Positions 5,105 to 56,721 of a stretch of DNA of 64,000 bases are shown here, one piece after another. Source of the stretch: Mobula hypostoma (lineage: Eukaryota); the NCBI RefSeq assembly GCF_963921235.1, contig NC_086097.1:132806001-132870000 (forward strand), written 5' to 3'. The first letter of the stretch is position 1, and each line of letters starts with the position of its first letter. The notes beneath the pieces were generated by a model. That model did no database searches. It was not told the DNA's origin and was given only the letters and a program-made list of their open reading frames with translations. The position numbers and the translations under genes are program-made.

Positions 5105-5677
5105 TGTGTGTGTATGTATATATATATATAGCATATTTTATATATTGTACTGTGCTGCGGCCACAACACAACAAATTTCACGACATATGTTAATCATAAT
5201 ACATCTGATTCTAATTCAGTTTTTGGCAACTCTTAAATCTCTTAAATTGACCTCTTGTATGATAAATAGACTCTTAACCTCATAACCTACTTTATCACGG
5301 CTTTACATGTTATTGTAACACTGCAACACTATATTTTGCATTCTGTAATTGAATTCCCCCTTGCATTTCCTCAATGTACTGAGTTGATGAAATGAGCTGC
5401 ATGGATGGCATGTAAAACAAAGTTTTTCATTGTACTTTGGTACGTATGATGATAAGAAACCAATTAATAAGCCAATAACTAGCTGACAGCGATTGCATTC
5501 AGTGATTGAGTAATAATGTCAAGAATTGGCAATGCAAATTATCCCAAGTCCTGTAGTATAAACCTTGGCCACTGTGTGGTAGTGTCCACACTCTAATGGT
5601 GGCTGAAAGGCTGGAAACCCACTGTTTGCTGCAGTGCCTCTTGTGACTACTTGCATCCAGGTTCATTCCTAGCAAAC

Positions 5678-5881
5678 AAGAGAAAATCTGCAGATGCTGG
5701 AAATGCAAGCAACACAACAAAATGCTGGAGGAACTCAGCAGCCAGGAGGCATCTATAGGAAAAAGTGCAGTCACCATTTCGAGAGTCCTGCCAAAGGATC
5801 TTCACCCAAAATATCGACTGCGCTTTTTTCCATAGATGCTGTTTGGCCTGCTGAGTTCCTCCAGCGTTTTGTGTGTGTTGC
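5678..5881. mobile_element. Penelope-terminus-derived fold-back insertion with 15-bp TSD
   Basis: Inverted copies of the PLE terminus (ATGCTGGAGGAACTCAGCAG / CTGCTGAGTTCCTCCAGCGT). Flanks TCATTCCTAGCAAAC (5663-5677) and TCATTCCTGGCAAAC (5882-5896). Confidence 0.8.
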
Positions 5882-6193
5882 TCATTCCTGGCAAACTAAC
5901 TTTGATTGGTATGTTCTGTTTAATTGAAAATTTGCATCAACGTTATGTTAGAGCAGTTATTCTCCTTCCTTTTCAATGAGAACTGGGACAAAATACGATT
6001 TAAAACTCTTAAGGAAGTTAACATCAATAATATTGTCTTAAAATTCCACTCTATTGCACAGCATCCTTGATACCCTTGTCACCTGCCCCTCCACTTTCCC
6101 TTTAATTTATGTTCCATTACAACGCGGAAAGAAGCCATTTAGCCCATTGAGTCCATACCAGCTCTCCAAGAAACACCATCCCCCACATACTTC

Positions 6194-14924: not shown

Positions 14925-15476
14925 TTATGTATCATGTCCAGAGAATTCACTATCATTGTTTACAATCTTCTCCACTATTTTATTAATGGCATCAAAAGTT
15001 GCACTCTTTGGAAAGGCTTGGTTGAAATCTCTACCTTCTTCCATTCTATGCATCAGTTGAGGATCTAGAGGAACACATCCTAGAAATGGAACAACGGACT
15101 GCCCAGAAAGTGCTTCTCCACTTTGCCTGGAAAATACATTAGTGCATTCTGAACAGTTTAGGCCGACAAAGACACTCTTGTTTTCAATTATTCCAATGAG
15201 AGGTAATCCAGTTTTCTTAAAGAATGTCAATTTCCTTCTCACATCTCCTATAGATACTGCTTGAGGTGTTGTAACCGACAGAGCTCCATCAGGTTTATGT
15301 TGGCAAAGGGCCTGCTCCACTGAGATATGTTCATCAGAAGCTCCCGGAGGTGCATCTACAATGAGATAGTCAAGCTCTCCCCATGCCACATCAGAAAGAA
15401 ATTGTTTGATAAAAGCTGCTCTCTTTGGCCCACTCCATATCACAGCATCATCTGGAATCTCCAAGAGAAAGCCTAT
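14925..15476 (-). pseudogene. NUBP2: Processed, 5'-truncated retrocopy of NUBP2 (cytosolic Fe-S cluster assembly factor, Cfd1)
   Basis: IGFLLE.PDDAVIW.GPK.AAFIKQFLSDVAWGELDYLIVDAPPGASDEH...TTPQAVSIGDVRR.LTF...IIEN.S...CSECTNVFS...VPFLGCVPLDPQL matches the NUBP2 C-terminal two thirds with no introns. The P-loop is absent and CPHC reads GLNC. Confidence 0.93.
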
Positions 15477-15733
15477 GGCGAGGGCCAACCAAGGTAGTTC
15501 TTACATGGTGAGCAGCAGAGCACTGAGGAGTGCAGTAGAACAGTGGGATCCGGGAATACTGATCCATAATTCCTTGAAAGTGGTCTCACAGGTAGATAGA
15601 GTAATAAAGAAAACTTTGGCACATTGGCCTTCATAAATTAGTGTATTGAGTACAGGAGTTGGGTTGTTACGTTGAATTTTATAAGACATTGATGAGGCCT
15701 AATTTGGAATACTGTGTGCAGTTTTGTTAACCT

Positions 15734-24904: not shown

Positions 24905-25748
24905 AAGGTTCAAAGGAACATCTAAACAAGCCTGATGCATTTTGGAAACAAGTCCTGTGGACTGATGAAGTTCAAATAAAACTTCTTGGCCGCAATGAGC
25001 AAAGGTATGTTTGGAGAGAAAAGGGTGCAGAATTTCATGAAAAGAACCCTCTCCAACTGTTAAACATGGGGGTGGATCGATCATGCTTTGGGCTTGTGTC
25101 GCAGCCAGTGGCATAGGGAACATTTACTGGAAGAGGGAAGAATGAATTCAATTAAATACCAGCGAATTCTGGAAGCAAACATCACACCGTCTGTAAAAAA
25201 GCTGAAGATGAAAAGAGGATGGCTTCTACAACAGGATAATGAACCAAAAAACACCTCAAAATCCACAATGGACTACCTTAAGAGGCGCAAACTGAAGGTT
25301 TTGCCATGGCCCTCATGGTCCCCTGACCTAAACATCATCAAGAATCTGTTGATAGACCTCAAAAGAGCAGTGCGTGCAAGGCAGCCCAAGAATCTCATAG
25401 AAGTAGAAACCTTTTGCAAGGAAGAATGGGCAAAAATCCCCCAAACAGGACTTGAAAGACTCTTAGCTGGCTGCAGAAAGTGTTTACAAGCTGTGATACT
25501 TGCCAAATGGGGTGTTACTAAGTACTGACCATGCAGGGTGCCCAAACTTTTGCTTCAGGCCCTTTTCCTTTTTTGTTATTTTGAAACTGTAAAAGATGGA
25601 AATAAAGAAGTTTTCTTGCTTAAAATATTAAAGAAATGTGTCATCTTTAACTTTATGCCTTTTTGAAATCAGTTCATCTTTTACTCGCTTAGCTATTCAC
25701 AGTAACAGAAATTTTGACCGGGGTGCCCAAACTTTTGGATACCACTAT
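24905..25748 (+). mobile_element. Tc1-family transposon, 3' half (DD34E domain + IR/DR right end)
   Basis: FWKQVLWTDE, TVKHGGGSIMLW, LQQDNEPKNTS, WPSWSPDLNIIKNL. Direct repeats GGGTGCCCAAACTTTTG at ~25536 and ~25721. Ends near TA. Confidence 0.92.
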
Positions 25749-26035
25749 ATGTCATTGGTATCAATAAGTACCAAGACATCTGGCTGCTCTCCCTCCCTCT
25801 CCAAAATGCTGTGGATAAGATCCAAGATGTCCCTGATCCTGGCAGCTGGGAGGTAACATACTATCCTGGTTTCCCATTCACATCCACAGAATCTCCTGTT
25901 CCTCTGACTATTGAGTCCCCATCACTACCGTTCCCCTCTTCTCCCTCTTTCTCCTCTGCACCACAGACCCATGCTCAGTGCCAGTAACTCGGTCTCTGTG
26001 GCAATCCCCTGGGAGGTCATTCCCCAGAACAGTAT

Positions 26036-26225
26036 CCCATTCTGATATGTCTATCCACGGCCTCCTCTACTGTAAAGATGAAGCCACACTCAGGTTGGAG
26101 GAACAACACCTTGTATTCCGTCTGGGTAGCCTCCAACCTGATGGCATGAACACTGACTTCTCTAACTTCCGCTAATGCCCCACCTCCCCCTTATACCCCA
26201 TCTGTTATTTACTTATATATACACA
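26036..26225 (+). mobile_element. Young Penelope GIY-YIG 3' fragment
   Basis: Near-identical to the reverse complement of 46770-46960 (HSDMSIHGLLYCKDEATLRLEEQHL.FRLGSLQPDGMN.DFSNFR). Confidence 0.9.
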
Positions 26226-26239
26226 CACACGCACACACA

Positions 26240-26342
26240 CGCAACTGCAGTGAGGAGAAGGAGGTGGACGCCTTCTACAGTAAACTTCATGAAGCTGTCA
26301 CTTCAATACCGGCACATAACTTCTTGGCTGTGCTCGGCGATT
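26240..26342 (+). mobile_element. Internal ~100-bp fragment of the RTE family found at 42668-46010 (endonuclease region)
   Basis: CAACTGCAG..AGGAGAAGGA.GTGGA.GCCTTCTAC.GTAAACTTCATGAAGCTGTCACTTCAATACC matches the reverse complement of ~45135-45235. Confidence 0.85.
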
Positions 26343-42667: not shown

Positions 42668-45600
42668 TACTACTACTACTACTACTACGTCGACTCAGGC
42701 CTAGGGGGCTGGCGTCGCGCACGATGACGGACTCTCCACTTCTCCCTCTCCCTCATCAGTGTGTTCAGTTCATCTACATTAGCCGCGCCACTGTCTTCTA
42801 GGAGCGTGTTGACCATAGTCATGGGAGGGCACCCAGGGTTCATCCTCCTGTGCTTGGGCTCCCATATGATGACTAGGCTGGCAGGTGGCTCGGGATGGCG
42901 TAGACAGTGCCCCGCTAGTTGCAGTCTTCTTGCCTTGATTTTAGTGGTAAGCATCGGTAGGTTGTTATAGAGCTCGACGTTCGTCATGTGCTGTTGCCAA
43001 CTCATGTTAAGAACCATCCGGAGCATTCGTGTATAGCAACCATCTAGAGACTTTTGCATAGTCTTGGTGAGTGTACACGTCTCGCATCCGTACGTGAGAA
43101 TGGACTCTATGACTGCTATGAAAATCCTCTTTTTAAGCCCTCTGGTGAGGTTCGACTTCCAGATTTCCTTCATGTCGTTCATAGCCCTCTACGCCAGTGC
43201 CTTCCGTATCTTTATGTCCTTCTCCAAACTCATCATTCTTGACCCAAGGTACTTGTAGTCAAAGACTTTCTTAATGGTATCATTCTCTACAGTCTTGAGA
43301 GTACTTTCGTTGCAGTTAAACGCCAAGTACTCTGTCTTTTTAGTGTTTAGGTGAAGTCCAACTTTATTGCACTCAATTTCCACTTTTGTCAGTAGCTGCT
43401 GTGCTTCCTCCATCTGGTCAGAGAGCAGGACTATGTCATCTGCAAAATCGAGATCTGTGAGCGTAACTGATCTGACCCTTTTGGTTCGCCATGGTTTTGT
43501 GGTAAAACCAAGCTTGTCATGATCTTTGGTAGCTTGACGCAGAGCGTGATCAAAGACGATTATAAAGCTGTAGGGTGCCAGAGTGTCTCCTTGCAGCACA
43601 CCAGCTAGGAGCTCGAACACTGCTGTTTCTCCATCTGGTGATACAACTTTCGCCATGGTTTTGGTATAGCTGGACTCTATTGCTCTCAGTAGATGGTCTG
43701 GCACTCCATAAACTTTCAGGATCTTCGGTGTTTTATCTCGGTGTATGGAGTCAAAAGCTTTGCGAAAATCGACGTAAGTAAGCATGGCTGGTAGGTTGTT
43801 CTTCTTGACTTCCTCAATGATCCTATGGAGAGCAAGTATTTGCATTACTGTTGTTCTCTTCTGGCGAAAACCATTCTGATTGAATCTTAGCTTAGGGTCA
43901 ATGGCGGTGCGAATCCTGTTCAAGATCATCCGACTACATAACTTTGCTAAGATGCAGGTCAAGCTGATACCGCGGTAGTTATCTGTCTTGTGAAGGATCC
44001 AGACTTGGGGACTGGGATAATGCTTGAGAGTGACCATTGTTCTGGTTTGTCGCCTTTCATCAGTGCCGTACTACATATGTCCAGCTAGATGTCGTCCAGG
44101 TCGCAGTTCTTCAGGACATCTGGTGGTATCCCATCTGGTCTAGCACTCCTACCCTGTTTGAGTGCATATTTGGCCTTCTTCAGTTCCTCAATGGTGAATG
44201 GGCCGTCATCAATGTCGACTTGCATTAGTATCATGGGTATGTCCTCTTCTTCTTCCATGATCGTTGGAGGGCTTCCCAGCAGGTACTTAAAGTGGGTAAA
44301 CCATGTCAGGACACGGTCCTCTGCTGTTTTATCACTTATTTGACCTGATGGGAACTTCTTTCATCTACTGATCTCATTGACTAGGCGCCATGCTTCTCCA
44401 TGCTGCATGTCTTCATTAGCAGCTTCTATCTCTCTAATCCTCTCAGCTAGTTCCCCTTCCTTCAGTCAGTCATAGGTGGCAAAGAGATTCTTCTCTGCTG
44501 TCTTGAACTTGTCTCTTAGCTCTTCTGTTTCGCTCCTTCGAAGTTCGGCATGACAAGCATTGACCACACCTCTTGCTGCGACAACATCAGGATGTTTCGA
44601 GATCCGACTCTCCTTAGTTTGCTTCACAGTAGGCAAACTCTTTGTTGCATCTGTGTGTGCGTCTATGACCCATTGATAGCGGTCGGTGGCAGTCTCTTCC
44701 TCCCCCCCCTTTCCAGTGGGCCGCAGCAATTTCTCACCTCCACTGTGTACTGGGCTTGAAGAATAGGTTGTGAGGAGAATGCCTTCCAGTCTATCTTCTC
44801 CTTGGGACCTGTGCCTTTGGGTTGCCGCAGGCTCAGTCTCACTTGCATTGACACTACTCTGTGATCAGAACTGACCGAGTTGAAGGTGCTGTAGGTTTCT
44901 GTGTTGGTCACACAATTACGCCATTTTGTTCTTACGAGGATGTAATCGAGCTGTTTCCTGCAGATGGAGGCTCTGTTTTCAAATGTCCACAGTTTACCAG
45001 CTCGCTTCTTGAATTGTGTGTTGGCACCAATGAGACTGTGTTCCTGGATGAAGTCAACTAGATATTGTCCATTTCTGTTGGTAAAGTCTCGTTATGAGTA
45101 TGGAACATCTTCCAGTCTGACCTGGGCATTAAAATCGCCAAGCACAGCCAAGAAGTTATGCGCTGGTATTGAAGTGACAGCTTCATGAAGTTTACCGTAG
45201 AAGGCCTCCACTTCCTTCTCCTTGCTGCAGTTGTGCGGGGAGTAACAGATGATGACAGAGGTTGTCAGGTTTCCGTCGAATTCTGCAGTAAGAATTCTGT
45301 CACTGACTGAGACTACGCCCCTCAGTGCCTCCTTCACCTTGGTGTTCAACATCAGCCCTACTCCACCTTGTGATGACATCGTCGTCGGCTCTCTCCATGC
45401 AGACGAGGTGATGAGGTGCATCCCCTCTACCTCTGTGAACCTTATCTCTTCGTCAGGGTGTACATGATGGTGTTCTTGGATCGCCAGGATGGAGATCTTC
45501 TAGCTGCTTGCCTGTGATGCCAACTCTGTGCATCAAGGAAAGAGGCGGATGGTGTTTGCGTTGAAGGTTGAGATGATCGTTTTTACCTTACAACGCAAAA

Positions 45601-46010: not shown

Positions 46011-46481
46011 GACAGAATAACCATGATGGGAAAAGTCTGTTGTTACCTTGGCTGCTACCCCAAGGCTGCAGGAAGTGTTAGACAGACACTATGAAGGGTA
46101 AGTTGGTTTTCGTGATGTTCACAATTCTCCAGAAGGTCACTTTTTGTGCTTTATGACTCTGACTCAATGGCTCAATCACTTCCTATTTCTTTCAGCCCTG
46201 AAAGTGACATCATGTGGAACTTTAAGAGCAGCTTCACATACAAACTTAACAAGAAGTGAAAATACTGCAATAGCCTACCCCTTTTGAATTAGCCTTAATG
46301 CTTCAGATATATGTATTGTTCAGACCTCTGGAAGATTCAAAGATTTTAGAAACTTTTATTCAAAAACATTTCAAGCTTCTGTGAAACCAAGTTAACAAGC
46401 TATTGTAATTTATGTTAAGCAACACACATAAAAGTTGCTGGTGAACGCAGCAGGCCAGGCAGCAGCTCTAGGAAGAGGTAC

Positions 46482-46517
46482 AGTCGATGTTTCAGGCCGA
46501 GACCCTTCGTCAGGACT
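46482..46517 (-). ncRNA. Minimal type I hammerhead ribozyme motif (PLE terminus)
   Basis: Minus strand reads agtc-CTGACGA-agg gtctcgg cct-GAAA-CATC-gact. Stem III has a C.A mismatch. Confidence 0.7.
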
Positions 46518-46821
46518 AACTGAAGGAAGAGCTAGTAAGAGATTTGAAAGTGGGAGGGGGAGGGGGAGATCCAAAATGATAGGAGAAGACAGGAGGGGGA
46601 GGGATGGAGCCAAGAACTGGACAGGTGATAGGCAAAAGGGATATGAGAGGATCATGGGACAGGAGGCCCAGGGAGAAAGAAAAGGGGGAGGGGGAAAAAA
46701 GCCCAGAAGATGGGCAAGGGGTATAGAGAGAGGGACAGAGGGAGAAAAAGGAGAGAGAGAGAGAAAAAGAATGTGTGTATATAAATAAATAACGGATGGG
46801 GTACAAGGGGGAGGTGGGGCA

Positions 46822-47274
46822 TTAGCGGAAGTTTGAGAAGTCAATGTTCATGCCATCAGGTTGGAGGCTACCCAGACGGAATATAAGGTGTTGTTCCTCC
46901 AACCTGAGTGTGGCTTCATCTTTACAGTAGAGGAGGCCGTGGATAGACATATCAGAATGGGAGTGGGACATGGAACGAAAATGTGTGACCACTGGGAGAT
47001 CCTGCTTTCTTTGGCGGACAGAGCGTAGGTGTTCAGCGAAACGATCTCCCAGTCTGCGTCTGGTCTCACCAATGTATAGAAGGCCACATCGGGAGCACCG
47101 GACACAGTATATCACCCCAGCCGACTCACAGGTGAAGTGTCGCCTCACCTGGAAGGACTGTCTGGGGCCCTGAATGGTGGTGAGGGAGGAAGTGTAAGGG
47201 CATGTGTAGCACTTGTCCCGCTTACAAGGATAAGTGCCAGGAGGGAGATCGGTGGGGAGGGATGGAGGGGACAA
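46822..47274 (-). CDS. Penelope-like GIY-YIG endonuclease domain (intact frame, truncated element)
   Basis: C..C..C linker, VIYC.RC.RC..LYIGET.R.L..RF.EH, R.EEQ.LI..L.SL.P.GMN. Confidence 0.9.
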   Translation of the reverse strand: MSPPSLPTDLPPGTYPCKRDKCYTCPYTSSLTTIQGPRQSFQVRRHFTCESAGVIYCVRCSRCGLLYIGETRRRLGDRFAEHLRSVRQRKQDLPVVTHFRSMSHSHSDMSIHGLLYCKDEATLRLEEQHLIFRLGSLQPDGMNIDFSNFR

Positions 47275-48844
47275 ATGGACAAGGGAGTCACATAGAGAGC
47301 GATCCCTGTGGAAAGCCGGGGGGGGGGGGAGGGAAAGATGTGCTTAGTGGTGGGATCTCGTTGGAGGCGGTGGAAATTACGGAGAATTTATGTTATTTTG
47401 TTTTAAGATTTTAAAAGGCCTGTGGAAAAGAATACGAAAAGTCTTACTTCAAATTAACAAGCCTCTTGGAAAAAATATTAAACATTTCAGAAAGAAGTAA
47501 AAACACTTTTCCATTATCAAGCGGCAAAAGCATGCAAGTCTTTTAAAATAAATAAGACTTTGAAAAGATTTTAAACTGTCATTTTAAATTAACAAGCATT
47601 TGAAAGACTTTAAAAAGTTTTTCTCAATCAACAAGATAGATTTCATAAAGTTGTTTAAGGTAACAAGCTAAATAGAATTTGCCTTTTAAAGGAGTTCTGA
47701 ACAAGGGGATATAAGTAGTACCAGGAAAGTGGTTGGCTATTTAAGACTAAGATGTATAAAAATCCCTTCTCTCAGACAGTAGTGAATCGCTGGAATTTTC
47801 TGCCCCTGAGGATGGTGGAGGCCAGTCATTAAAAATATCTAAAGTATGGACAAATTCTGTGCTAGCGAATCAGACAATGCAAAGAACGCACCTGGACTTG
47901 ACTTTGTGTTGGGTTCATTTATGACACAGCCAGGACAGAAAATATTAGCTGTGGGCATTCAGAATTAGTTCAGAAACTTAACAGAAGCTGCCTTGACATC
48001 AGAAAGGGCAAATGGATTGTCCATTAGTAGTATCTTTTTCTACTGTACTTTCTATGAGAAACACATGAACATTAACATCATGCAACTAGCAGTTGATGCT
48101 AGATAGAAAGTCGATTGAAATACCTTGCTAATTTTCTACAACATATGAAGATGAGTTCATATTTCACTTCTGCAAAAGGTAATTCAAAAAAATACTGAGA
48201 TTCTGGAGATCTAAAATAAAAATGGAAAATCAAAGTCAGGTTTTTTTTCATAAACACAAGTACATGTATGTATAGGTGCAATGAAAAGCCCACTTGCAGC
48301 AGTATCACAAGCATATAGCATCATATAAGCAGCATTCAGAATAAAAAAAAGCAAATTAAACATAAATTATACTCAGTTTTTTCGATGAAGTGCACAATTA
48401 GAACAAAAAATCCATTTTAAGGCAAAGCGATTAATTTGGTCATAACACTGCTAAACCATAGTGACTACAGGTTTGCTGCTTGGTTCAAGAAAAGAATGGT
48501 TGGAGGGAAGTAGCTCTCTTGAACCTGGTGGTGTGGGGTTTCAGGACTCTACACATCCTGATTGTAGTTGCAAGGTGTTGGGGATTTTTGACGATGGATG
48601 TGGCCTTTTTTAGACAGCACCTCACGTTAATAATACGAACAGTTGGGATGGAGATATTCAGCAGGTCAAGCCACATCTATGGAAAGAGAAACAGGGTTAA
48701 CATTTTCTGTCAAAAGTTCTTTGTTGAAAAATATCATTCAAATCAGATATACTGTAGATAGAGCACTAATTTATCATTTATGGATTACGGTGCTGGTTTT
48801 GAGCTGTTTTGAAATCTCTGGATGATATACTGAAAATGTACATA

Positions 48845-50150: not shown

Positions 50151-51469
50151 TTTTGATACCTGCCAACAAACCCAGCATGCATCATTGGATCCATCGGGCT
50201 TGGATTGGGCAACCAAGCTCAAGGTATATCTTGGGTACACCAGTCAATAAATTTAACTTCATTTCACAATTCTGCAGCGAACCCAAGTTTCCGTCCCCAG
50301 TAGGCTGAACTTTTTGAAAATCCACTCACACCTCGTCAACCTTATCACTCTTTTTAATTATTTGCTTGCTTAGCTTGCCTTGTGTAATTTTAATTACTTT
50401 ACCTGCTTTTCTCCCTCTCTCTGAGGTCTATTGTCAACATTTCTTTTCCCGTAATGCTTCCCTGCACACCTGAGTCATTGCTGGCTTTATATTTTCCCCT
50501 GCCTCCCAATGTATATTTTGTGACTGAAAGGCCATAAAGTCTGTCAGTTTACTGACTGATTCACCAATCAAAACGCATTGGTCTGTGTGACAAGTCAAAG
50601 TGAAACAGATGTTTGTGGTGTCCATGGAAAATTAAAACTAATGACAACTTCTTACAGCCTACTCTCAAAACACATTTAATTGATGCATCTGATATGATAC
50701 ATTCTCTCAAAGTAATAAAGCAAGCTTGCTGATCAAATAAAAAGATCTGCTGGAAATCTCAAATAAAAACAGAACATGCTGAAGACATTCAGCAGGTCAG
50801 AGAGGATCTGTGGGAAAACAATAGAGTAAATGTTTACTGTCCAAGACTCTTCGTCAGAACGTTTAAAGTCAAGACTCATAAGGAGATATAAAACAAGATC
50901 AGCTGAAGCTTGTTCAAAGGTTTATGCTTTAAGAAACATTATAAATGAGGTGATAGTCCGCAAGGCAAAGAAGGCATACCGGCAACTCTACTTTATATGT
51001 TACCAAAGATTTTTACACAACTCTATCGATGCATGTTAACAGGTTGTATCACTAACTGGTATGGAGTTACCAACGCATAGAATCACAAGGGGCTGTAGAG
51101 TGTTATAGAATCAGCAAATCTGCATGCCCTATCACTGACATACTCATCTACCACTGTGGTGATTCTGTGGAGGTAGTGTCTCAGAAGACAGTGTCTGTCA
51201 CTAAGGAAACTCATCATGTGGGACATTTCCTTTTCTTGTTACTACCAATGGGAGGAGCTGTAGAATCCTGAAGACCTACATGCAGTGATTCAGAAACAGT
51301 TTCTTCACCTCAGCCATCAGATTTCAGAACAGTTCATAAACCCACGAAACATATCTCACCGGTTTTTTTTTCAGTGTTTGTTTATTTTTTTACACCTTTG
51401 CAATACACTGCTGTTACAAAACAAGTATCAATTGTGGTGGGTTTTGGTTTGCTAACCACAAAGTTCTAA

Positions 51470-51845: not shown

Positions 51846-53777
51846 AGTGGATATAAGTGGCCATGAGTATTCTCACTAAAGCGAGCTTATACTGTAACTA
51901 CCCAGCCTTCAAAGACAAGGTTACTTCCCTGTTTATTCTCCATGGTGAGATTAACTACTAATACCCACTATTTGAGAAATTGGTTCCCAAAGAGAAGATA
52001 CTTCCAGTGAACAAAGTGGTTTAAACACTGTTCATTTATTTACAGTGATACACGTTTAAGTCCAAACAACACTTTTAAAACACATTTAAAACTCACAGAG
52101 GATATCTGTCTTAAATATTTCCATATTTTCAGAGGATGTCTGTCTTGTCTTGAATTATTGAATCATTATATTGAACATTGAAACATTATAAAACATTTTC
52201 AAATTACAAACGATTCCTAAAACACATGCCATTTCTTAAACATAAAGCACAAAGCATTAAGGATTTCTTAAACTCAATAAACTCATTAAGCACAGGTATA
52301 ATTCCTATAAACTAAAATGACATACCAGCAATTTGCAGACAAATAAATTGTCCATCACAAAAAACAAAGCTGGAGGAATGGATTCTCACTCATGCTCTGT
52401 TTCTTCATTGTTTCTTCTTGAAATTCCTTACCTCAGTGCTAATAAGCCCAAATTGCTCTCTGTGTTTATACACTTTTTCTACCTCTTGAGTGACTTCGCA
52501 GATAGTCTAAAATCATTTTTGGAGACTTAGAGCATAGCAAAGGCTGTAAAGCTAACTTCCTTGAGCATATAAAACTTCCAAATAAAACACGTTAGTTATT
52601 GATATGCTAAATGATATTATCCATTTGTTCTGCAAGCTTCCTTGAACTAAGCAATTTAAGAGTCAGCTTGTCTGTTCAAAACAACTCAAATTAAACAACC
52701 CATTGACTTATACGGACCTCTTGAACAACAATAAAGCAGGTGTAGTCAGCTAACATTTGCTTTCCCAGAGAGAGGGTGTTTTCAAAATACAGAGATTGTT
52801 TGCAAATCTGTGTTTTTTTTACTTCAAAATGATTGCTGGTTTCCATTTACATGATGAGAAGGCAGGTGTAAGGGGTTGAGTGTGATCTGGGATCAGCTAT
52901 GATGGAATGGCGGAACAGACTTGATGGGCTGAATGGCCTAATTGTGCTCCTATGTCTTATGGTCTGATGGTCTTCATTTTAAGAGCTGAAGACTGACTTC
53001 CATTTACGACCAGAAATGTTTAAAAAGCTGTGAGTTAGAAGTTCACTTGCACATTTGTAATTTTCCAAATGGCAGCTGTTATTTAGAAAGCAGCGTTAGC
53101 AGAAAAAAGCATGAAGTAATTATCCATCACGCATTATAACATCAGAGAAGTTAGTGATGATATATCTTATTCTGAGCTTGATTTCAGTTTCAGAAGAGAA
53201 TTCCAGAGCTTTCATTTTTTGGGTTTATTGGAAGTTTCAATAGGAACAGATCCTTTGGATTAAGTCTCCATCCTGGATTCCTGTAACAAACAGGTAATGA
53301 ACAATCGTAGATGAATTTACATGTAACAGTCTTCAATAATGAAGAATAACAGACAAATGTTAACCAACTCCCTCCATCCCCAGTAAATCCCATAAAGACT
53401 AGATTGGTTGCAGAGTGAAATAAATAGATTGTTATTAGTCCAGTGTATACAGAGATATTCTCTAAAGTTTTACAAATTGGACAAGAGACAGCAATAACCA
53501 CAATTTATTTCCATGAGTGTTTCTACTCAGTTAAAACACTTCACATGGCATAATCAAAGAAAACTTCACTCTGCACTGCTTACACAGAAGTTAAGGCAAG
53601 TGATCAAAAGCTAAAAGCAAAGAGATTAAGTTTATGGCGCTCTTAAAAAAGGAAAGCGAAATGGCAAGACAAAAGCACAAACATGAGGAAATCTGCAGAT
53701 GCTGGAATTTCAAGCAACACACATAAAAGTTGCTGGGGGAGTGCAGCAGGCCAGGCAGCCTCTCTAGGAAGAGGTAC

Positions 53778-53813
53778 AGTCGACGTTTCGGGCCGAGACC
53801 CTTCGTCAGGACC
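53778..53813 (-). ncRNA. Minimal type I hammerhead ribozyme, canonical core
   Basis: Minus strand reads ggtc-CTGACGA-a-ggg tctcgg ccc-GAAA-C-GTC-gact: GUC cleavage triplet and palindromic ACGT stem III. Confidence 0.8.
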
Positions 53814-53885
53814 CTCCTGTCTTCTCCTATCATTTCGGATCTCCCCCTCCCACTTTCAAATCTTTTACTAGCTCTTCTTTCAGTT

Positions 53886-53921
53886 AGTCCTGACGAAGGG
53901 TCTCGGCCCGAAATGTCGACT
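53886..53921 (+). ncRNA. Minimal type I hammerhead ribozyme motif (second copy)
   Basis: agtc-CTGACGA-a-ggg tctcgg ccc-GAAA-T-GTC-gact. Confidence 0.75.
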
Positions 53922-54349
53922 GTTCCTCTTCCTAGAGATGCTGCCTGGCCTGCTGCATTCCCCCAGCAACTTTTATGTGTGTGGCAAGACAAAAGGATGT
54001 CTTAGGGAGGAAATTCTGGAACCTAGCCCTTGCCAGCTGTAGGTATGCTGCTGACGTTGGAATGGTTAAAACTGAGATTGATTGTGAGGTTAGCAGTGGA
54101 GGAGATCTCAAAATGTTGGAGGCTGGAAGAAATTGGAGAGATGGGGAGCTAATTGTAGACAGGCCACAGTCTGACCAAAATAGCAGGAAGCCTCAAGAGG
54201 TCAAATAACATACCACATGCTTTAGGTCCATTTCTCCCTAAGAGTTCCCATAAGGAGATTCCCAACAGGAATTAATTTGGGGAGAAAATAATGCAATTGA
54301 AACAAATAGGATATAAATGGCAAAAAAACAAAGAACCAACCAGTTGCCC

Positions 54350-55735
54350 TCCTCAGTGTTTAGCCATGGGCACCTGCATGGGCCCCAGCTATGCCTGCCT
54401 TTTTGTTGGCAATGTCGAATAATTCACGTTCAAAGCCTTCCCTGGTAATGCTCCCCACTCATCCTGCGCTACATTGACATTTGTATTGGTGCTGCTTCAT
54501 ATACCCACAGTGAGCTCAACAATTTCATCAACTTTGCCTCCAACTTCTACCCTGCCCTTAAATTCACTAGGTCCTTTTCTGACACCTCTCTTCCATTTCT
54601 TGATCTCTCTGTCTCCATTTCTGGAAACAAACTGTCTACTGACATCTTTTATAATACTACCAATTCCCACCTTGACTATACATCTTCTTAACCATGTGTA
54701 AAAATGCTATTCCTTTTTCTCAGTTCATTTATCTCTGCTATATCTGTTCCCAGGATGAGCCTTTCCTTTCCAGGCCTCCAAGAACATGGTTTCCTTTCCT
54801 CCACCATTGATGCTGCCCCCACCCGCACTTCCTCCATTTCTTGAACATCTGCTCTCACCCCATCTTCCCGACGCCTTAAGAGTAACAGAGTTCCTCTTGT
54901 CCTTATTACCATGCTATGAGCCTCCGCGTCCTTTTCTGCAACTTCCGCCATCTTCAGTGGGACCCTATCACCAAACACATCTTCAACTCCCCCCCCACCT
55001 CCAACTCTCTGCTTTCATCCATTCATCTCCCACCCCACTGATCTCTATCCTGGCACATATAACTGCAAGCAACATAAATGCTACATCTGTCCATTCACAT
55101 CCTCCCTTACCTCCACTCAGGGCCACAAGCAGTCTTTCCAGGTGAGACAACACTTCACTTGCAAATTTTTTGAGGTCGTCTATCGTAGCTGGTTCCCCCA
55201 ATGTGGCCTCCTCTACATTGGTGAGACACGACATAAATTAGGGACCACATTGTTGAACACCTCCGTTCCATCCATCAAAAGCGATATTTCCCAGTGGCCA
55301 ACCTTTAATTCCTATCCCCATTCCCGTTCCAACATTTCAATCATCACCTCTTCTTTTGCCATGACGAGGCTTCTCTGATGGCATAAATATAGATTTCTCG
55401 TTCTGGTAATTGTTTTCCCTCCCCTTCCTACTTCTATTCCCACACAGGCTTCTCACCTCTCTCTTCACCCACCTATCACCTCTCTCTCTTTCACCCATGG
55501 ACCACTCTCCTCTCCTACCATATTCCTTCTTCTCCTGCCCTTTACCATTCTAACCAACCTGGCTTCATCAATCACCTTCTAGCTAGTCCTCCTTCCCTTC
55601 ATCCCACCTTTTTATTCTGCCATCTTCCCCTTCCAGTCCTGAAAAAGCGTCTCAGCCTGAAATGTCAACTGTTCATTCATTTCCACTGATGCTGCCTGAC
55701 CTGTTGATTTCCTTCAGCATTTGGTGTGTGTTGCA
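54350..55735 (+). mobile_element. Degenerate Penelope-like element (RT + GIY-YIG + terminus)
   Basis: AMGTCMGPSYACLFVG and RYID RT motifs. QHFTC...CGLLYIGETR. Decayed hammerhead at ~55635-55670. Confidence 0.88.
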
Positions 55736-56721
55736 AAGAACAAAGATATCCACAAAAACAATGGAACTCTTTCTTTTGATGCTATATCTCTTTCTACAGA
55801 CGCTGCTTGACCCTTACTGTTTTCTGAGATTTTTAACCCGCAATGATAGCTAACATTTGAGTTCTCTGCCATTTTCTCAATCTCTGGACAATCTTTCACT
55901 GTTAAATGAGATATCTCTCAGGTAAATAATATCTTCTTTCCATTCAGTGTTGGATTAATCTCACTATGACTTTTGATCAAAATTGAGATACATCTGTATC
56001 AGAACTATGGACATTAGTGATGGCCCTTGGACACTCTACCATGACATGCTCTGCATAAGTGAGAACCTGGCACTACCACAAACAGCATGTTAATATGCAG
56101 CAGAGCACTGTGATCTGATACCACTCTGGTTACACATTGTTCCCTGGCCAGCATTTGAAATTTCAAAAGATCTTCTGGATCCATGCACTCAATCCCTATC
56201 CAGGCCTTTGAAACTCACAAGGGGTCATAAATAAGTACCTTGTGTTAGACCTGAAGTAATAGCTCCCTCGCTTTGATCTCTTAATGTCAAATCATTCATA
56301 GCATATGGATATATCATACATTTTTTGTCCATCTCTAATTGTTTCTGAATTTACATGAGAGTCAAGGGTTAAAGGGGTGGCATATTTCTTTCAGTTAATG
56401 AATTGGAAGGGATTTCAACATGATCTAGTACTTTCAAAGCAATTTATATTGAATCTAGCTTTTATATTTAAATTTCAGATTTAGTTAATTGCTTCAATGT
56501 AATTGAATAAGGACTTCAAACCCATGTCTCTGCATGAGTGGACTGGAACTCTGGCTCTCAGCCCAATCATTTAACCATTACAATGCTGGATATATTGGGG
56601 ATGTCCTTACTATTTATTTGCACATTGATTGTCCACATCTACCATCACTTCTGTGGGTGTGACCTTCTTTAATTTGTTCTCTCTTATTTCAGATTTCCAG
56701 TACTTTTGTAGTCTCAGTTAA

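Follow-up and report, generated by a model that had tools for sequence, protein, structure and literature searches.

A 306-bp unit in the 64-kb window (the whole stretch of DNA that was analysed) very probably represents a single dead-on-arrival insertion of a ray Penelope-like element (PLE) of the Neptune/Nematis type, with a C-terminal GIY-YIG domain. That it is a real insertion was settled by organism C, in which a 522-nt contig joined 53661 directly to 53982 with one copy of the flanking 14-mer, that is, an empty site. The insert follows the known pattern of an inverted pLTR with a tail and is very probably neither a retrozyme nor a fixed mini-family, since a second fold-back in the window and the public contigs showed other junctions. 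Its parts, and two other copies from the window, are the following:

53662..53675, unstranded: left target-site duplication (TSD), 14 bp, single copy at the empty site of organism C
53676..53717, minus strand: tail extension of the inverted arm, 42 nt past the end of the forward arm
53718..53812, minus strand: inverted arm, from the 3' part of the pLTR; its truncation point lies 3 nt upstream of the hammerhead core
53735..53742, plus strand: rare G-run variant tract of the left arm, equivalent to 53957-53964 of the right arm; the sibling copy lacks it at 46418
53778..53813, minus strand: minimal type I hammerhead, minus copy, with a loopless palindromic helix III; predicted cut 53782/53781
53812..53813, unstranded: head-to-head junction with 1-nt microhomology and no palindrome
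53813..53886, plus strand: 74-nt loop, ordinary upstream pLTR of the forward copy, aligning to sibling 46422-46597
53886..53921, plus strand: minimal type I hammerhead, plus copy, its palindrome lost by C>T at 53914; predicted cut 53917/53918
53887..53981, plus strand: forward arm, 3' end of the pLTR, stopping at the short (tail-less) terminus
53982..53995, unstranded: right TSD, 14 bp, its first 4 nt agreeing with the family continuation at 3/4
46407-47395 (element 46418-47384), minus strand: sibling PLE copy, 5'-truncated, with an 11-bp AT-rich TSD and a tail-less end
5664-5896: older fold-back PLE insertion, TSD 13/14, with the tail on the inverted arm and a tail-less forward arm

Layout and age of the insertion

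Without the TSD, the 306 bp were made up of an inverted part of 137 nt and a forward part of 169 nt. The two TSD copies (53662-53675 and 53982-53995) were identical at 14/14 positions; since the 64-kb window had 6 places (12 overlapping hits) with exact 14-mer direct repeats lying 100-1500 bp apart, the repeat alone is not unique there. The repeat finder returned an inverted repeat of 99 nt with 95% identity and 74 nt between its halves. Outside the TSD, the arms measured 95 nt and were complementary at 91/95 positions, the four mismatches being two private changes per arm. These figures bore out the earlier note, which had described a perfect 14-bp TSD around 306 bp with two inverted Penelope termini. 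The arms were asymmetric, with the 42-nt extension present in the inverted arm only and 74 nt of extra upstream sequence in the forward arm only.

Contigs from four of 24 sequencing runs were aligned to 53150-54300. In organism B, the closer relative, contigs spanned both borders of the insert, 53150-53700 (11 differences) and 53963-54300 (6 differences). The divergence of the flanks was about 2% to organism B and 31/789 (3.9%) to organism C. As the site was filled in B and empty in C, the insertion was dated between the splits of these two lineages. The contigs of organism A (run X1) may come from the window's own source and hence gave no independent support; an empty allele was looked for in this organism and none was seen, and an X1 contig reached 53976, inside the insert. 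In run X9, considered to be RNA by guess only, contigs covered parts of both flanks, with no piece across the insert.

Parent element, family and tail

The Penelope origin proposed earlier was upheld by the forward part of the insert (53812-53985), which matched the sibling's 3' end (46419-46597) over 180 nt at 90% identity. The sibling has a GIY-YIG frame at 46822-47343 (Pfam PF01541, E 6.6e-5). Eighteen longer relatives of this frame were found, the best 8 of them ray and shark proteins, and the frame was 88% identical to a Mobula hypostoma protein. The linker preceding the GIY-YIG domain in the sibling reads C-x4-C-x2-C. According to PMC8557442, a CX2-5CxxC linker at this position marks Neptune/Nematis and is absent in Penelope/Poseidon; by this motif, the putative parent element is assigned to the Neptune/Nematis type. 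RT was absent from both insert and sibling, and the sibling-frame relatives P0007 and P0011 (PF00078) extended into RT motifs. These RT-bearing relatives matched an older broken copy at 54360-55023. That copy, on the plus strand, runs from RT to pLTR at 54340-55736, about 350 bp downstream of the insert, and its terminus is 76% like that of the insert.

The PLE family had 15 termini in the 64-kb window, and 92,796 contigs of run X1 aligned to the 53150-54300 stretch. The depth in X1 was 1.7-9.4 million over the element and about 7 in the flanks, a measure of high abundance and not a copy number. Searches of the literature, with subscription papers mostly outside their reach, found no published description of this ray family; the supplements of PMC4209133 and bioRxiv 10.64898/2026.07.22.740005 may list motifs from cartilaginous fishes. 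The predicted protein P0008 of Stegostoma tigrinum reads into the pLTR and ends in a C-terminal peptide like the translated hammerhead region (compare the frame 53591-54001), which suggests that shark relatives may carry the hammerhead motif too.

The inverted arm extended 42 nt past the end of the forward arm and about 37-38 nt past the end of the sibling at 46418. Before 53678, 324 X1 contigs had loose ends unlike one another; therefore, a terminus shared by the family lies there. A full tail match was found at 2/15 termini of the window, both being the inverted arms of the two fold-backs; 6/15 termini were older and partial, with tails that may be too diverged to score (the one at 50769 has a tail-like start). 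The extension corresponds to the optional tail of 30-40 nt described at one end of PLEs (PMC3846280, PMC8557442). In the anole element PAc, the tail region sits between two RT start sites (PMC11167929). The tail pattern was also sought in metagenome contigs, where 14 loci matched, all over 19-23 nt only, and were discarded as chance.

Other retroelement and gene fragments were noticed in the window. At 26035-26342, a fragment of the endonuclease end of a PLE (96% to 46772-46962) runs into a CA repeat, which directly adjoins a 101-bp piece with 92% identity to 45133-45233 of another retroelement; a template switch between two element RNAs is a possible origin. A long RT-bearing retroelement fragment lies at 42685-45499 and a fragment of a DDE_3 (Tc1-like) transposase at 25064-25528. 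On the minus strand, 14925-15500 holds an uninterrupted frame of 191 aa of the NUBPL/ParA P-loop NTPase family (E 1.1e-51), 5'-truncated and intronless, which resembles a processed pseudogene derived from a cytosolic Fe-S assembly factor, presumably NUBP2-like.

Origin of the two arms and recurrence of the pattern

Two separately primed cDNAs offered the best mechanism for the insert, because each arm holds sequence that the other lacks. Of the two 5'-truncated pLTRs, the forward one (169 nt) ends at the short terminus and the inverted one (137 nt) at the long terminus, with the tail. Both arms ran through the predicted hammerhead cut site, so both templates must have been uncut there. Taken jointly, it is moderately probable that there were two nicks, that each primed a cDNA, and that both cDNAs stopped early and had their ends joined head to head. 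In such a process, the element endonuclease would nick both strands 14 bp apart, and each nicked 3' end would prime RT at one of two internal start sites, the short site or the tail site. The template would be uncut RNA, either two molecules or the two pLTRs of one tandem RNA; both cDNAs would then halt early, and end-joining would unite the truncated ends head to head. A partial match between primer and template was present at the right end of the insert (3/4) and at the tail end of the 5664 copy.

PAc, a Poseidon element of Anolis carolinensis, nicks and extends both strands and has uncut RNA as its main substrate (PMC11167929). It resembles the insert in the two termini bounding a tail and in the uncut templates, and nicking and extension of both strands would give a product of this kind; however, PAc belongs to a clade (Poseidon) different from that of the insert's parent with its CX2-5CxxC linker, and PMC11167929 shows no inverted product. 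The earlier proposal of a twin-primed micro-insertion held in so far as one event, an inverted segment and priming from both nicks would be involved, but not as an L1-type event, since the 3' terminus is present twice. In L1 twin priming, the second primer anneals in the middle of the RNA and the 3' end is present once (PMC9148063). Hence, the insert shares with it priming by both target ends, an inverted 5' segment and a TSD, and differs in its doubled terminal 95 nt and in the absence of poly(A).

Self-priming was also considered, in which a cDNA would fold back and copy itself and the centre of the palindrome would later be trimmed asymmetrically. Such a snap-back was put forward by Arkhipova et al. 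(PMC3846280) for inverted PLE junctions with palindromes, and it would account for the presence of the rare variant tract in both arms. Nevertheless, it could not yield the insert in one step, because the tail is found only on the left, the 74-nt spacer only on the right, and no palindrome exists at the 53812/53813 junction; an extra deletion step would be required. We therefore regard self-priming as unlikely, and retain the two primed cDNAs as the preferred reading.

A mini-family of retrozyme or MITE type was weighed as well, whose 306-nt fold-back RNA would be copied by the Penelope machinery into copies sharing one junction. In its favour, neither cis end of the element is missing from the insert, and mobilisation of other sequence in trans is within the capacity of Penelope pLTRs (PMC3846280). 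Nevertheless, the second fold-back of the window (5664-5896) had a different junction, located within the hammerhead region, with both of its motifs decayed. At 53812, most contigs either ran on as ordinary pLTR (143 in X1, 68 in X5 and 30 in X10) or ran into mixed sequence (475 in X1, agreement 0.36), and none of the 32 pieces listed, of about 164,000, crossed the 53812/53813 junction, which is likely to be unique to this locus. Furthermore, the tail is placed as a primary insertion would have it, outermost on the inverted arm, and retrozymes are tandem direct repeats (bioRxiv 10.64898/2026.07.22.740005). A mini-family is thus highly improbable. The notion of a non-autonomous retrozyme-like unit was not supported: the motifs are opposed instead of tandem, the junctions of other fold-backs differ, the insertion is of an age at which organism B shares it, and one motif is CpG-decayed.

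Over the four runs, 600 joints within the element were counted. Among the 15 joints listed, mostly with short sides or with unknown letters between them, 14 linked 53789-53815 to 53883-53925, from 9 start places. Many joints of other copies had their landing point at the base that opens hammerhead stem I (53886); this may reflect a breakpoint preference or may be an artefact of older subfamilies that diverge upstream of 53886.

Non-LTR retrozymes share with the insert a short, non-coding, PLE-pLTR-derived sequence with a type I hammerhead, but they are tandem direct repeats with motifs on the same strand, whereas the insert is an inverted pair with motifs on opposite strands (bioRxiv 10.64898/2026.07.22.740005). 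The Pen2a_Av and scaffold-304 copies of Adineta vaga have, like the insert, head-to-head pLTRs, a one-sided tail of 30-40 nt and one TSD (PMC3846280, PMC8557442). Unlike them, the insert consists of two pLTR ends only, with no ORF and no junction palindrome, lies in a ray host and has a TSD of 14 bp, compared with 8-10 bp in the inverted-pLTR copies of A. vaga (PMC3846280, PMC8557442). Two independent insertions at one site, a solo pLTR followed by a second copy inverted beside it, would fit the great abundance of the family (15 termini in 64 kb) and the tendency of PLEs to insert next to other copies (PMC6765202), but were largely refuted by the single TSD around the two arms and the lack of another duplication at their junction, by the recurrence of the layout at 5664-5896 and by an empty site without either arm.

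Hammerhead motifs, predicted masking and possible exchange between the arms

A hammerhead motif scan of the window gave 4 matches, 2 of them in the insert (+53890 and -53809); the hammerhead-like matches at 51268 and 52986 were dropped, as stem II was absent on inspection. Both motifs of the insert had an intact CUGACGA core, an extra A, stem II, GAAA and GUC, stem II being formed by 3 G-C pairs plus U-G with a 4-nt loop. The plus-copy stem I had 4 Watson-Crick pairs and the minus-copy stem I had 3 Watson-Crick pairs and a G-U, the G of which comes from across the junction. Consequently, the description of two opposed minimal type I hammerheads stood for the cores, stem II, GAAA and GUC, but the 4-bp stem I that it gave to each motif was not made of 4 Watson-Crick pairs in the minus copy. 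The loopless palindromic stem III reported for the minus copy was found there and is lost in the plus copy, where the CpG transition at 53914 would leave U-G wobbles in a dimer. The sibling hammerhead carried two CpG transitions.

The minimal hammerheads (min-HHRs) of metazoan PLEs are of type I, with a short helix I, an extra nucleotide 9/10.1, G10.1-C11.1 and a palindromic 15.2-16.2 without loop 3, and dual minimal motifs on opposite strands about 100-700 bp apart are on record (PMC4209133). Both copies of the insert had the core, the extra nucleotide 9/10.1, G10.1-C11.1 and the short helix I; the palindromic 15.2-16.2 for a dimeric helix III was present in the minus copy and only wobble-paired in the plus copy. 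Type I architecture, the extra nucleotide, G10.1-C11.1 and opposed dual motifs are thus common to the insert and the published min-HHRs, whereas the insert differs in the loss of the palindrome in one of its two copies and in a helix II of 4 bp, compared with 7-8 bp in the Schistosoma families (PMC4209133). The Infernal/Rfam check that had been proposed did not detect the motifs: the window contained no family at the gathering score, and a search of 53600-54050 at E<=10 gave 4 matches to lncRNA/miRNA models, at chance level, with no hammerhead family among them. The hammerhead pattern had 0 matches in viral contigs and 0 in metagenome contigs.

The long masking hairpin anticipated earlier was supported by the folding of the insert RNA, which gave -212.5 kcal/mol (z = -19.8), with equally stable shuffles in 0/100. 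In the full transcript, stems I and II had a computed probability of about 4e-40 on the plus strand and 3e-33 on the minus strand; with the other arm removed, it was 0.003 and 0.24, respectively. These figures describe equilibrium, with protein left out of the model, and the PAc hammerhead is protein-assisted (PMC11167929). The antisense arm precedes the hammerhead in the transcripts of both directions. Hence, the claim that transcription of either strand gives a hammerhead-containing RNA held only on paper, where the motif is present, but with the antisense arm made first and the stems at about 1e-40 (plus) and 1e-33 (minus). Moreover, the motifs sit on opposite strands and so form no same-strand dimer, the state that minimal hammerheads require and in which their cleavage is still weak (PMC4209133; review PMC6765202). 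As modelled, the hammerheads of the insert very likely do not cut, and a read-through transcript would form a 95-bp hairpin that hides them. They are passengers of the pLTR, and the locus, if transcribed, is at most a source of dsRNA.

A retained ribozyme switch, with one hammerhead cleaving a host or element transcript under the control of the antisense arm, would be in keeping with the intact catalytic cores of both motifs and with the value of 0.24 computed for the minus-motif stems once the other arm is removed. It is nevertheless extremely improbable, given the antisense arm ahead of the motif on both strands, the need of minimal hammerheads for a same-strand partner and their poor cutting even when dimeric (PMC4209133), the CpG decay in helix III of the plus motif, the two private changes per 95-nt arm, a rate no slower than that of the flanks, and the absence of the insertion from organism C.

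The rare variant tract bears on the later history of the arms. In both arms, it differs from the sibling by one substitution, one extra base and one CpG transition, and by a rough estimate the G at 53737 made up about 0.1% of the depth of its bin in three runs. The organism B contig that enters the right arm had its first 9 letters unaligned and its alignment started at 53963, the exact point where sibling-like sequence would begin to match. The evidence from organism B on the tract is this one contig, known from its alignment, with the left arm uncovered. The shared tract was first taken as proof of one source RNA, an argument that the clipped contig weakened. On this single contig, the chances are nearly even that the tract arose in lineage A after the A/B split and was copied from arm to arm, a type of conversion between inverted repeats that is known in yeast (PMC8604942). 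If overwriting of the arms is real, variants common to both are no proof of a single RNA template.

The insert is a clean and dated example of a published Penelope insertion pattern in its smallest form. Its importance as an individual locus is slight; its value is that of one data point on the way in which PLEs generate inverted copies and tails, the asymmetry of the arms speaking for two primed cDNAs rather than for a simple snap-back. A broader idea, which we put forward tentatively and with more doubt than confidence, is that micro fold-backs might be records of two-nick, two-cDNA integration (forward from the short site, inverted from the tail site) whose arms later overwrite each other. 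If this is true, ray genomes, with many copies and empty sites in relatives, would allow dual priming to be tested against self-priming and would show how far arms are homogenised in the germ line of a vertebrate. Penelope fold-back hairpins could also be a large dsRNA pool in ray transcripts.
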